DNA of 64,000 nucleotides from an uncultured Verrucomicrobiae bacterium (GCA_963738245.1 CAVTWB010000011.1:83498-147497); one strand, 5' to 3'; shown: positions 13,680-45,750, counted from the stretch's first letter. The notes: generated from the sequence alone by a model not told the origin. A program made the numbers and translations.

Positions 13680-14190
13680 CCAAGGACTCCAGCTTTAATA
13701 ACCGGGCTTCACTGCTCCGTGACGGTGCCTTGCCGATAATTTCCCAAGCCCTCCAGCCAGTTGGCGCGATCTCCCAGACAATTGCCGGAACCGTTCGGGA
13801 AACTCTTTTAGCCGTCCCGGCAACTTGTTTTACGGCTCCGAGAACTTATTAAGCGGCTCCACCAACTTTTCAGACCATTCCAAGAACTTTTCAAGCCTTC
13901 CAAAAAGTTTTTTGGAAGGCTCCAAGAACTTTTTGAACCGTCTGAGGAACTTTTTGAATGCTTCCAGCAACTTCTTGAGAGGCTTCGGCAACTTTTTGGA
14001 AGTCTCCGGCAACTGCTGGAAGGGTTCCAGCAACTTTTTGAAGGCCTCCAAGAACTTCTTGAGCCTTCCGAAGAACTCTTTAGAAGTCTCCGGCAACTTC
14101 TTGAGAGGCTCCAAGAACTTATTTAGCGGCTTAAAAAGTTCCCGAAAAGGCTTAAAACGCCTAAAAATACCCTAAAACAGATAAAAACGG
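13680..14190. repeat. array of about 24 contiguous degenerate 21-bp units (consensus GGCTCCAAGAACTTYTTGAAG)
   Basis: Units were phased by hand, e.g. 13918-13938 GGCTCCAAGAACTTTTTGAAC, 13960-13980 GCTTCCAGCAACTTCTTGAGA and 14044-14064 GCCTCCAAGAACTTCTTGAGC. Track ORFs 13825..14175(+) and 13830..14114(-) are both open purely because of the repeat. Confidence 0.85.
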
Positions 14191-14429
14191 GCATTGTTTA
14201 ACTGGCAACGGCCCCGGCAGCGTTCCGGTGGTCAAAAAGCGACAGTTTGGCGGGTCTGCCGGCGAACGGACGTGGCGGCTTTCGGCAGAAAGCCGCATTC
14301 TTCAATTTCCTTGGATTGGCGACGCTCTGCCGAGTCGCCGCTACATAATGCCCCGACGCGGCCAGTCGTTTGGACAGCAAAAATTGTAAAATGACAGGGT
14401 GCCGAAATTTATGATATTATCCCGCTTGG

Positions 14430-14759
14430 ATGCAACCGGTGGATAAATTCATGTTCGGGGTGGGCATTTTGTGGAGCCTGTTCACGCTCTACGGCCTCGG
14501 CATGTTCTATCCGCCCATGAACCGGTGGATGCGGGAATGGGAAATCAAAATCGGCAAAGGGAGAACGGGGATGCCGACCCGCCTGCAACGGGTGGTTTTC
14601 ATTCTGCTGACCTGCCTGATGACGACCGTGGCCTTTGCGAGCGCCTACCATCGCAAACTCGACACGGTCATCGGCATCAGCTCCGGCACGGCCTGTGCCC
14701 TGATGATGATTCTGCCGGGGCTGTATTTTGCGCTGGGGCTGGCTGAACAAGCGTCTTAA
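14430..14759 (+). CDS. small membrane protein (3 TM), unknown function
   Basis: ORF 14430..14759 with hydrophobic segments FGVGILWSLFTLYGLGMF, VVFILLTCLMTTVAFA and ACALMMILPGLYFALGL. Confidence 0.55.
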   Translation: MQPVDKFMFGVGILWSLFTLYGLGMFYPPMNRWMREWEIKIGKGRTGMPTRLQRVVFILLTCLMTTVAFASAYHRKLDTVIGISSGTACALMMILPGLYFALGLAEQAS

Positions 14760-14794: not shown

Positions 14795-15005
14795 TTCATC
14801 CTGAAGGGATGAAATCATTCAGCCCGGCGTTGAAGCACAGCGACTACGCCGGGTGATCAATCACAAATTAAACCAACCCTGAAGGGGTTGAAGCCCGGCG
14901 CGAACAACGGTGATGCAACCCCGTTGGGGTTGGAAATGATTTTGGACGGATGACCCAAGGTAGCTGCGCAACGTTGGGCTGATGGATTGAATCCCGTTGG
15001 GATTT
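14795..15005. repeat. hairpin-rich intergenic repeat element (five short stem-loops)
   Basis: CATCC-TGAA-GGGATG (14798-14812), CCCGGCG..CGCCGGG (14823-14853), CAACCC-TGAA-GGGGTTG (14874-14890), CAACCCC-GTT-GGGGTTG (14926-14942), AATCCC-GTT-GGGATT (14990-15004). Confidence 0.5.
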
Positions 15006-42187: not shown

Positions 42188-44275
42188 ATGAAATTATCTA
42201 CCTTGGACATTCCGTGTCTTTCATGGCTGGCAGGCGGTAAAAAATCTTTGGCCCTGTTGTCTGCCGCCGTCGTTTCTGTCATCGGCCCCATCACGGCCCA
42301 GGCGACGCTGATCGCCTACGAGCCGTTTAATTATTCCGGCTCGCAGATTAACAACGGCACTCCTGTGCCTTCCGGCACGCCCACCCAGACCACGGGCGGC
42401 GGCTGGGTGGCCGGCAACTGGTCTTGTGCGCCCGCTCCCGGCGGTGCCCTGGCTTGGAACTCCGCCGGGCTGACCTACCCTGCTCTGCCGACGGCCAACG
42501 GCTCCATTTCCACCCTCGGTGCCAATTATTTGTATGAAAAGATAGCCAGCGCGCCCACTTCGGGCAGCGTCTGGGTGAGCTTTCTTTTCCAGCAGAATGG
42601 CGACAACGGCGGAACCAGGAACGGCATCATTTTGGAAAACAGCAGCGGCACGGGCGTAATGTTTGCCTACCATCAATACAGCGGCTCCCAAGGTTATCCC
42701 TGCCTGATGGCGATGAGCGGAACGATCTCGGTTGGCACGGAACTGGGAGACAGTTCGGCGCTTCAGACCTATGCCAGCGCGAATCTCTACGTGCTTCAAT
42801 TTACCTATTCCGGCGGGGTGGTCACCAGCATCTCGGTCTATTCCAATCCGACGGCCGGGCAGAGCACGGTGCCGGCGCCCGACTTCACGATCACCTCGGG
42901 CTTGGGCAGCATCGGACAACTCGTTAATTTCGGTTTGGCGAACCCGGCCCCCAACCAGCCTATAACGGTTGATGAATTCCGTGTCGGCACCACCTTCGGC
43001 GATGTCGTGGGTGCGGCGGCCACGGCTCCCACGGTTCCAACCACCCTCACGCTTTCAGTCGCCTCGGGCAAGGAAATCAGTTGGACGGCCAATAATACCG
43101 ACAGTTATCAGCCCCAAAGTTCCACCGACGGCATCACTTGGAACAATCTGGGCGGCGTTTTGGTCGGCAACGCGGTGACCTCGGTCTATGACCCCGCGCC
43201 GGTCGCCTTCTATCAGGTTCTGGATTACACCGTGGGCGGGCCTAGCACGAATCAAATCATCAACGGCAGCTTTGAAATCCCCGACCTCACCGAGAATAGC
43301 GGCGCGTTCGACTGGGTTTCCTCCCCGAATGACACCTACGACAGCGTCTGGGTGACCAACAGTTATGGCTCCATCCTGCCGCATTCCGGCACGAACCTTC
43401 TTTACATGGAAGGAACCACCGCCGCCTCGACCCCCACACCGCCAAACACTTTTGCCTATCAAAATCAGATTCCCGTGACTCCCGGGCTGCCCTACACGGT
43501 GAGTTTTTATGCCGCCAACCCGGTTAAAATTAGTGGAGCCAACCCGCAGTATCTTATCCAGTTTTATGACGGGATGGGCAACTTTATCTCCCAAACAGCG
43601 CCCAGCTTCATGTCCGCCGGAAATTCCTGGACGCTGTTCAGCACCACCGTCACTGCTCCTGTGAACGCCGCCCAGATGGCTGTCAATTTCATCCAGGCCG
43701 TTGGTGCCGGTGCCAGTTCGGATTGGGTTACTTTGATTGATGACGTGTCCATTACCTACCCGACCACCGGCCCGACCAATGTGCTGGCCGCCACGGTTCA
43801 AGCGGGTGCAATCTTCACGGCGACGATTCTGACCAACGGAGTCACGGCCACCGCCGCAACCGGGAATGTCGAGTTCCTGACCAACAGCGTGGATCAGAGC
43901 ACCGGGGCGGTCGGGAGCGGCACCGCCAACAGCACGCCCGCCGTCGTGCCCCCGTCCTACACCGTCACCGCCATCTACTCCGGCGACGGCACCTATCTCG
44001 GCAGCACGAACACCCTGGTGGTGGGCGGCAGCAACTTCGGACCCGGCAAAGGCTCCGTGAGCTTGTCCGGTGGCAATTCCACCGTGGTCATGTCGGGCGT
44101 ATCGGGCAACCAATACGCGTTGGAGCGCGCAACCAATGTCACCTTCACCGCCGGCATTTCAAACTTCCCGACGGCCATTGCCCCGGCCAGTGGCAATGTA
44201 ACCAACGTGGACAACTTCAGCGATCTGGGCGGGGCGCCCAAGGCGGCATTCTACCGGCTGAAATACATCCCATAG
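42188..44275 (+). CDS. large secreted surface protein (CBM-like and Ig-like segments)
   Basis: Signal peptide ..VIGPITAQA, an INGSFE.. jelly-roll-like segment, and [24 protein letters not shown], which resembles a bacterial Ig-like domain. Confidence 0.75.
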
Positions 44276-45377: not shown

Positions 45378-45750
45378 TTTACTCCAGATTTGGTCGGTAA
45401 GCCATATTGACCGGCCGGTAAGCCATATTGACCGGTCTCTTTTCTCTATGGATTAACCGTCAAGCCATATTGACCGGTCAGCGAGCTATATTGACTGGTC
45501 TCCGGTCCTGTTTGATTGGCCGTTAAGCCATATTGACCGCCGGCACCTCCATATTGACCCGTCGTTAAGCCTTATTGCCCGGCCGCCATTCTTTATAGAC
45601 TGGTTGCTGGTCTTTATTGATGGGCCGCCAAGCCATATTGTCCGGTCGTCAAGCTCTATTGACCGGGGACCGCTCTCTATTGACCGGTGGCAGATCAATC
45701 TGGCTTGACGACGATTTTAACTGTCCCGGCGGCCATTTTAACCGGTCCGC
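45378..45750. repeat. array of about 16 contiguous degenerate 21-bp units (consensus GTCAAGCCATATTGACCGGTC)
   Basis: The AAGCCATATTGACCGG core starts at 45399, 45420, 45462, 45483, 45525, 45546, 45567, 45588, 45609, 45630, 45651 and 45672. Every spacing is a multiple of 21, and degenerate copies fill 45441 and 45504. Confidence 0.85.

Follow-up and report, generated by a model that had tools for sequence, protein, structure and literature searches.

The window (the whole 64,000-nucleotide stretch of DNA that was analyzed) comes from contig 11 of an 18-contig, 3.4-Mb genome. The tandem array that is our subject is intergenic, lying between the stop codon (13583) of a convergent alpha/beta-hydrolase gene (Pfam Hydrolase_4) and ORF109, a called plus-strand gene for a small membrane protein (14430-14759) that has its own conserved, sigma-70-like promoter 220 bp beyond the array. 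Also nearby are genes for a HEPN-like orphan and an S9 peptidase. Exact-sequence look-up found neither the hydrolase nor ORF109 on record, and Pfam and PADLOC searches with both ORFs that cross the array returned only noise.

The core of the array (13813-14169) consists of ~17 clean 21-bp units, head to tail and in exact phase when laid out in a 21-bp register, with the consensus GGCTCCAAGAACTTTTTGAAG. TRF reports periods of 21, 42 and 84 across 13879-14120, and identity at a lag of 21 is at least 0.49 in all 126-bp windows that start between 13702 and 14080, compared with a background over the whole 64 kb of 0.29 on average (sd 0.06, 99th percentile 0.47); a fainter signal (0.35-0.45) extends back to ~13640. 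To the left of the core, lag-21 identity above background and alignment with orthologous loci mark a flank (13690-13812) that holds 5-6 decayed units, e.g. CTCCCAGACAATTGCCGGAAC, which continue in phase to ~13690. To the right, fixed spacing and orthologue alignments define a conserved flank (14122-14250) made up of the last decayed units, phased A-tracts ~10 bp apart and the block AAAAGCGACAGTT. The original prediction had described exact 21-bp phasing, decay toward both ends and an A-rich right end, all of which the register layout bears out, the phasing being seen also by TRF and in lag-21 identity. Its figure of about 24 units agrees with our total of 21-24, of which only ~17 are recognizable, the rest being decayed; its placement of the array's start just after the hydrolase gene needs correction, as ~100 bp of unrelated DNA separates the hydrolase stop from the array.

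Within the units (TRF, motif counts and the register layout together give the core consensus as GGCTCCAAGAACTTYTTGAAG), AACTT is a near-invariant core, set in the dyad CAAGAA-C-TTCTTG. The core pattern CCAAGAACTTNTTGA, with at most 2 mismatches, occurs 7 times, always within the array, whereas shuffled sequences gave a mean of 0.39 occurrences and never 7; the spacings between these cores are all 21 bp except for one 42-bp step that spans a core-less unit. The palindromic core claimed previously is therefore strongly enriched, but the perfect palindrome CAAGAACTTCTTG is found once only, in the unit at 14044, and the remaining units approximate it. Tandem repeats with partial dyad symmetry are present, and the units would be candidate binding sites. 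These measurements confirm that the array is a genuine, exactly phased 21-bp tandem repeat.

Relatives of the array and how it evolves

Several routes to related loci failed. The hydrolase has orthologues in 12 congeners, none of them accompanied by the array or by matching neighbors; a DNA search for the array in 40 relatives gave no match, nor did a protein search for ORF109 in those 40. The pattern AACTT-N3-GA at 21-bp spacing was too loose to serve as a family probe and mostly returned unrelated coding repeats. A larger protein collection, in contrast to the 40 relatives, held 36 homologues of ORF109, and the closest of these led to two orthologous loci (L180 and L181); a third (L183) was reached through the flank pattern.

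All three share the right-hand neighborhood of the window (ORF109, S9 peptidase and ilvD), and chromosomal contigs as long as 1.1 Mb show synteny with the locus. Their order is a minus-strand gene encoding 517 aa, a ~35-bp spacer, a left flank beginning CCAGCCTTAATAA, the array, and a right flank; the A-tract-rich right flank is followed by a variable palindromic insert, the conserved sigma-70-like promoter and ORF109/117 on the plus strand. On the left, homology between the window and these relatives stops at ~13688, and beyond this synteny break the convergent hydrolase gene stands where the relatives have the 517-aa gene, which is absent from this incomplete genome. From the anchor CCAGCYTTAATAA onward, the left-flank stretch aligns with all three orthologues, with gaps of exactly 21 columns. 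The right flank is visibly better conserved than the array core in the comparisons with L180 and L181 and is 84% identical to that of L183, and the distance from TTTAGCGGCT to AAAAGCGACAGTT is exactly 103 bp in the window, in the three orthologues, and in L173/L184, a short copy that has a window-type right flank in a different gene context.

The array itself changes much faster than its surroundings. Flanking sequence is 92-94% identical between the window and L181 (89-94% over the three orthologues), compared with only 69% for the array region, and the predominant unit differs by lineage: CCAAGAACTTYTTGAAG in the window, CCAAAGAATTCTTTCAG alternating with CCAACGAACTTGTTGAAG in L181, and GGCAACTTCCTGAAC or GGCAATTGG in L183. 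What is conserved across lineages is an AAYTT core, the 21-bp period and a length of ~12-24 units. Between the flank anchors, the window and L181 both span 443 bp, against 377 in L180 and 380 in L183, so that the comparison of copy number between relatives, which had been proposed as a check, gives a clear answer: unit number differs between close relatives, as in a VNTR, by about three units, and the length differences among assemblies, like the alignment gaps, amount to whole units or nearly so. Edges that are better conserved than the core are the usual picture for a repeat homogenized by unequal exchange. These alignments show that the array changes by gain or loss of units, which are homogenized to a different variant in each lineage. 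A more distant relative (L182) has the ORF109 gene and its promoter with no array, which implies that the array is dispensable for ORF109.

An exhaustive profile search with the plus-frame ORF that crosses the array returned 37 proteins; we read the top matches and fetched their contigs, and these top matches proved to be gene calls laid over homologous arrays on peat and soil metagenome contigs. These contigs define what we call the home locus of the family, and its order is constant at the six home loci examined (L174, L175/L187, L176-178, L179, L186 and contig 8 of the present genome): an XRE-type HTH gene (~139 aa, matching Pfam HTH_31 and HTH_3), an array of 12-17 units, and, 60-240 bp further on, a gene encoding 227 aa. 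On contig 8, the HTH gene occupies 153016-153432 and is followed by the array (~153560-153865) and by the 227-aa gene (153936-154617), the reading of which is split over three frames. AlphaFold predicts five helices followed by an fn3-type sandwich for the 227-aa protein (mean pLDDT 78), the architecture also of the large paralogous family. Five more distant paralogues in the same genome each have a different 21-bp array upstream.

The window array is 82% identical to the L174 array over 200 bp, and another related array lies on contig 4 of the same genome (43380-43790; C4 below). A six-frame search finds family arrays in 15 of 163 species of the genus, often with matches on both strands, and about half of them contain stop codons. 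Neither the XRE regulator gene nor the 227-aa gene lies near the window array which, judging by these similarities, is an extra ("orphan") paralogue of a conserved array family.

A genome-wide class of 21-bp arrays

Across the whole genome, TRF finds 72 loci of at least 100 bp with a period of ~21, 42, 63 or 84, and 65 of these have a period exactly divisible by 21. Units from different loci are mostly unrelated in sequence. About 70% of the arrays lie wholly outside rough gene calls and the rest mostly under short, weak ORFs; 12 of the 65 have stops in all six frames. Dyad symmetry is modestly higher in the units of this class than in random intergenic 21-mers (5.85 vs 5.31 pairs of 10, p = 4e-4).

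The genome also contains ~35 paralogues of a ~210-aa protein with a helical N-terminal part and a C-terminal fn3 domain. An array is found within 1 kb upstream of ~25 of these genes and upstream of every 227-aa paralogue, and about half of the ~65 arrays lie upstream of fn3-type paralogues. The window has a second array, at ~45.4 kb, that belongs to this fn3-upstream set. With its exact 21-bp period, its length of over 100 bp and its intergenic position, the array studied here is a member of the class, but it does not lie upstream of a ~200-230-aa helical-plus-fn3 gene (HMM and tblastn searches find no fn3-family gene within reach of it), as the sister arrays on contig 8 and at L174-L179 and L186 do.

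No 21-bp arrays were found in the 400 kb sampled from a congener, which suggests that they are confined to part of the genus, and in the literature that we searched, we found no mention of arrays of this kind for Verrucomicrobia. Other repeats, e.g. a REPIN-like element, also collect in the long spacers of this genome.

Two general explanations for phased repeats upstream of genes were set aside. The 10.5-bp A/T harmonic that intrinsic curvature would produce is the strongest one in 19 of 65 arrays, compared with 22% under the null, i.e. it is not enriched; in the window array, it is very weak (0.15, against 4.12 at 21 bp). As for a sigma-54 enhancer, the sole -24/-12 candidate (CTGGCAACGGCCCCGGCA, at ~14201) is wrongly spaced and its TGGCA is not conserved, reading TGGAA in L181 and TGAAA in L180. 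A TGGCA-N7-TTGC motif accompanies only a few fn3-family genes.

Coding, binding and other readings

Two open frames cross the array. On the minus strand, a candidate coding frame of 94 codons (13830-14114) begins with TTG, runs through heptads of the form F-K-K-F-L-E-x and ends with the TAA at 13830-13832; it contains no ATG, and the TTG is preceded by a TAG. On the plus strand, an open frame of 116 codons (13825-14175), also with a TTG start, reads GSKNFLx. Both frames read as the original prediction had them, including the break of KKFLEAF/KKLLEPF by that TAA, and the elevated third-position GC that it reported for both is also seen (G+C by codon phase, 0.26/0.38/0.69), the two being high together because the frames share their third positions. 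We do not count the 0.44 spread of G+C among codon phases as evidence of coding: by our estimate, it is within the range of repeated random 21-mers. Over the array as a whole, the plus GSKNFLx frame is fully open, the minus KKFLEAF frame has one stop, and a plus LQELFEx frame and a Ser-rich minus frame have two each. Such open frames are expected for any repeat with a stop-free unit and are thus not evidence of a gene. The plus-frame ORF is most likely an accident of the repeat. Pfam finds nothing above noise in it, and its apparent homologues (P0001, P0006, P0014, P0019 and P0033) result from gene calling over related arrays and traverse different inserted palindromic elements in their N-terminal parts.

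The minus frame deserves closer attention. It is possible, if rather unlikely, that the array encodes or recently encoded, on the minus strand, a small amphipathic protein of heptad repeats (F-K-K-F-L-E-x, or h-p-p-h-h-p-x) and that relatives transcribe it together with the next minus-strand gene; in that case, the window copy would be a pseudogene that the TAA at 13830 has cut short and that the loss of its downstream partner has left isolated. What speaks for this is chiefly a 3-bp periodicity. In every array of the family, the least variable unit positions are 1, 4, 7, 10, 13, 16 and 19, which are second codon positions of the minus frame and whose conservation preserves the hydrophobic/polar heptad pattern. 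Variability summed by phase is 15/28/36 in the window, 14/31/39 in L174, 6/21/31 in L181 and 6/31/34 in L176, with per-array permutation p values from 0.33 to 0.0005 (the latter for L176). Substitutions that are synonymous in the minus frame number 30 of 79 in the window, and 32 of 72 and 26 of 51 in further arrays of the family, where 12.4, 13.7 and 13.0 are expected, a 2-2.4-fold excess over a simple uniform null. The 3-bp signal is missing from the genome's other arrays (4 of 62 at p<0.05, with 3.1 expected). The codon-usage log-odds of +0.13 per codon are low, yet inside the range of real genes; the minus frame is open in L174 (with an ATG), L176, L179, L181 and L183; in L180, L181 and L183 the frame ends, as read by eye, at a conserved TAA ~40 nt before the ATG of the 517-aa gene; and the C4 and L184 copies also lie directly upstream of minus-strand genes.

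These statistics are inflated, since unit variants have been amplified and the arrays share ancestry, and multiplication of unit variants by duplication also means that the independent substitutions are few; moreover, the family was singled out post hoc from ~40 families. The conserved positions double as mirror partners around the dyad center (10/13, 7/16, 4/19), and the plus frame, which uses the same triplets, scores nearly as well, with CTT<->TTG exchanges preserving Leu there. No intact frame with a start and a stop conserved in orthologues was found (the original prediction had named an intact orthologous gene as what would settle the array as coding). The start is conserved in neither frame, the TTG being part of the unit; in L181 the first start is at codon 103 of 144, and its open frame is immediately preceded by a stop. 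The window, too, has stops, and the frame breaks in L180 and on contig 8. No homologous proteins are on record: searches of 5.8 billion protein clusters with the minus-frame products from the window and from L183 matched nothing, and gene callers call nothing across the array in L180 or L181. The peptide would also be altered wholesale between close relatives (FKKFLEx, FKKFVGT/LKEFFGS, FRKLPEP), and a compensated 1-nt shift in L181, between TCCAA and GAACTT, keeps the DNA motifs and the 21-bp period while changing the peptide. Finally, the array of the sister locus occupies the upstream position that clearly non-coding arrays have at paralogous genes. Single-base slips of core spacing (22 or 43 bp) in the C4 and contig 8 arrays were discounted as an argument against coding. 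Because we take the periodicity to be real but have no explanation for it, we retain the gene as a minority possibility; if the array ever was one, the window copy is a broken one.

The reading that we prefer, although we would put it no higher than an even chance, is that the array is a non-coding minisatellite of 21-bp units that loads a protein with two-helical-turn phasing and evolves by gain, loss and homogenization of units. It is favored because the array belongs to a mostly intergenic class of ~65 and has sister copies that lie upstream of genes and beside a regulator gene, and because there is no conserved start, no minus-frame protein match, and a record of stops and frame breaks in orthologues. 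In position, period, length and evolutionary behavior, the family matches the fn3-upstream arrays, for which coding is excluded. Of the two possibilities that the original prediction had left side by side, a non-coding binding array and a degraded heptad-repeat gene, the evidence thus leans toward the former, with a codon-like signal that is nonetheless real.

In molecular terms, each unit would be one partly dyad-symmetric candidate site, and a dimeric DNA-binding protein would occupy these sites at intervals of two helical turns, on one face of the DNA and cooperatively, forming a nucleoprotein array that could set the expression of neighboring genes. The best candidate for the binder is the XRE regulator encoded beside the sister array: its gene lies directly before the array at all six home loci, making it the only consistent candidate. 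The XRE recognition helix (VSRQM...) is identical beside arrays of different unit type, which would be compatible with recognition of the AAYTT core that the arrays have in common, though it does not count as evidence of this. We saw no co-variation of either this helix or the 227-aa protein with unit type, and since the helix is the same beside different units, co-variation lends the pairing of regulator and array no support. A rearrangement at ~13688 probably swapped the left-hand neighbor gene of the window copy for the convergent hydrolase gene. This whole binding model is our inference from sequence, and several observations weigh against it: the XRE candidacy rests on adjacency at the sister loci, with no such gene near the window copy; constraint on every third base is the pattern of a coding repeat and is unusual for a protein-binding site; and the fast turnover of the core is explained equally well by weak or no constraint. 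The window copy may be no active control region but a relic or a decoy, because it has neither regulator nor 227-aa gene, its left neighbor has been replaced, and the ORF109 promoter is separate.

That last observation on turnover leads to an account with no function at all, which we consider unlikely: slippage and unequal exchange would regenerate a 21-bp repeat seeded by duplication of a sister array and harmless in a long spacer. It draws on the rapid change of the core (69% identity against 92-94% for the flanking genes in L181), on differences of about three units between close relatives, on copies in unrelated contexts (C4, L173/L184 and the ORF109 locus), on L182 having no array before the same gene, and on the other repeats, such as the REPIN-like element, that the long spacers of the genome have gathered. 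Mere tolerance sits less well with retention at the same locus in four lineages with an exact period and a length of 18-21 units, with a conserved right flank and its exact 103-bp spacing in five loci, with an AAYTT core that is near-invariant while other positions turn over, and with the strong association of the class with the upstream regions of one protein superfamily; nor are the arrays a general by-product of replication in the genus, given the 400 kb of a congener that contain none. An RNA role, as a long leader or non-coding RNA whose self-complementary units form extended hairpins, seems very unlikely to us. Both strands do fold far better than shuffled sequences (z = -5.3 and -4.4; none of 100 shuffles reached the same stability), and some sister arrays end only ~70 bp before a start codon, so that the array may be transcribed within the leader. 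The fold, however, follows trivially from a quasi-palindromic unit; the arm positions do not co-vary, position 9 varying independently of 15; unit types differ between orthologues, so that no specific helix is preserved; the only Rfam matches are weak chance ones to microRNA models; and the conserved ORF109 promoter lies downstream of the array. The original prediction had also raised the possibility of an assembly artefact, a collapsed or expanded repeat, to which the single-base slips in the C4 and contig 8 arrays might seem to lend color. We regard this as next to impossible because three independent metagenome assemblies from other samples (L180, L181 and L183) have the array in this very position between matching flanks, the L181 span being identical at 443 bp.

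A broader conjecture, which we regard as a long shot, would make the arrays lineage-restricted, undescribed cis-elements, each paired with a member of the helical-plus-fn3 family. The 3-bp-step constraint in the window's family would then come either from dual use, as a DNA platform and as a translated amphipathic heptad peptide, or from a filament-forming protein that steps three bp per subunit, with seven subunits per two helical turns.

Comparison with known systems and significance

The nearest described system appears to be sopC of plasmid F, in which 12 direct repeats of 43 bp each carry a 16-bp inverted repeat that is bound by SopB (PMC3177203). Like sopC, the present array is a contiguous run of a dozen or more direct repeats whose period corresponds to an integral number of helical turns, the dyad-symmetric core of each unit would suit an HTH dimer, and a gene for a DNA-binding protein adjoins the array (here, at the sister loci). 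Unlike sopC, it is chromosomal, has a 21-bp rather than a 43-bp period, and is one of ~65 arrays that differ in their units; next to the copies examined there is neither a ParA/SopA-type NTPase gene nor a ParB-like gene, and the home arrays lie upstream of fn3-type genes. We therefore reject a partition centromere: no partition NTPase or ParB-like gene is found among the neighbors of the window array, and the synteny is chromosomal and not that of a plasmid or prophage.

In the ParR-parC (plasmid R1), omega repressor (the heptads of pSM19035) and TubR-tubC systems, small dimeric repressors coat short tandem repeats that lie in or next to a promoter, and the resulting helical nucleoprotein also autoregulates the adjacent operon. 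The repeats of these plasmid and prophage partition cassettes number ~7-10, with units of 7-12 bp, and the binders are of the RHH or winged-helix type. Coating of short tandem repeats by a small dimeric repressor is what we would propose here by analogy; none of the components of these systems, however, is present at the window array. Plasmid iterons are direct repeats of 17-22 bp bound by Rep initiators; there are 3-7 of them, usually spaced, beside a rep gene, an AT-rich unwinding region and DnaA boxes. The present array resembles them in its ~21-bp unit and its direct, phased repetition and differs in having no rep gene and a syntenic chromosomal neighborhood (S9 peptidase, ilvD). Iterons are rejected on these grounds: Pfam finds no Rep-like protein among the hydrolase, both array ORFs, ORF109 and ORF216, and there are ~65 arrays per genome. 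The iteron-like and centromere-like analogies that had been drawn for this array thus find no counterpart in the gene content nearby (no replication or partition gene), in the chromosomal context or in the dozens of arrays per genome.

Mycobacterial MIRUs, at 46-101 bp and in a few copies per intercistronic gap, form one sequence family genome-wide. They share with our arrays an intergenic position, a unit length that is a multiple of three, a unit number that varies between close relatives, and open frames that run in the direction of the adjacent gene; our arrays are unlike them in having a 21-bp unit, 12-24 copies per array and a unit of their own at each locus. Amphipathic heptad-repeat (coiled-coil-like) proteins provide the parallel on the coding side, with the seven-codon period, the h-p-p-h-h-p-x pattern and the conservation of second codon positions; unlike such proteins, the minus frame has no conserved start or intact frame, Pro or Gly in most heptads, and no homologue.

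Most known examples of phased, binding-type sites in long tandem arrays come from plasmid centromeres and origins. What is new here is a phased tandem site array that is chromosomal, is found at many loci and is paired with genes. The class is unusual in that the unit is specific to the array and that many of the arrays are associated with a single protein superfamily, and the presence of dozens of such arrays on the chromosome of a free-living soil bacterium points to an undescribed mode of gene control or DNA organization. The window's family is the best-resolved case, with a home locus, a candidate regulator, several paralogous copies and four orthologues, and as it is the only family with a codon-like constraint, it makes the choice between coding and binding directly testable. 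The window copy, an orphan member, matters mainly as a clue to the role of a little-understood class of arrays; the class itself and its unexplained 3-bp constraint are the interesting parts.

ORF109 and its promoter

To the right of the array lies the gene for ORF109, a conserved small protein; together with its promoter region it occupies window positions 14391-14759. This protein has 36 homologues at 48-87% identity; none of them turned up in a search of 40 related genomes, and ORF109 matches no Pfam family. Judged by eye, it looks like a three-helix membrane protein. Conservation of its sigma-70-like promoter (ATGACA-18-TATTAT) extends to a relative without the array.

Palindromic inserts and RAYT-related sequence beside the array

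A 77-bp palindromic element lies at window 14270-14344, with two inverted arms (GTAGCGGC..CGGCAGA..GCCGC) separated by an AT-rich spacer, and is dispersed in approximately 34 copies genome-wide. It resembles a REPIN, in which two REP sequences headed by GTAG are paired, and the genome encodes three homologues of RAYT-like (Y1_Tnp) genes. In L180, L181 and L183, the metagenome loci orthologous to this one, the same position is occupied by other palindromic inserts. Farther right, window 14795-14892 is 77-82% homologous to the inverted repeats that border a RAYT (Y1 transposase) gene in the metagenome locus L174; in the window this stretch is solitary, and the RAYT gene is absent there.

Related arrays and their home locus

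The home locus of the array family is found on genome contig 8 (153016-154617), where an XRE-type HTH gene is followed by an array (about 14 units), after which comes a gene for a 227-aa helical+fn3 protein. Reading the latter gene requires three frames, reflecting either frameshifts or assembly indels. In each of four metagenome loci with this module (L174, L175, L176 and L179), sigma-70-family genes lie just upstream of the XRE gene; they carry Sigma70_r2/r4 domains, and some are long and also contain TPR or DUF3738. Contig 4 (43380-43790) carries a third member of the family to which the window array belongs; it comprises about 19 units, and its spacing slips once by a single base. This array stands 167 bp upstream of an ABC-type ATPase gene on the minus strand, and its other side borders a gene-poor gap of 788 bp, within which there is no 227-aa gene. 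The metagenome locus L184 (reverse strand, ~2230-2420) offers another context: here a short copy, 6-7 units long, shares its right flank with the window array and is situated immediately upstream of a gene on the minus strand. The product of that gene starts MPDIVLTTLNAKFIH, and the minus frame of the array continues into the gene without a stop.

Helical+fn3 paralogues across the genome

A helical+fn3 protein of ~210 aa has about 35 paralogues across the whole genome. A sigma-54-like motif (TGGCA-N7-TTGC) is found upstream of only a few of the paralogue genes, and most of them are preceded by a 21-bp array of their own, as exemplified by the array at window 45399-45735 and the fn3 gene that follows it at ~46.1-46.8 kb. 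One such array-plus-gene unit is present in three identical copies, on contigs 9, 11 and 14.
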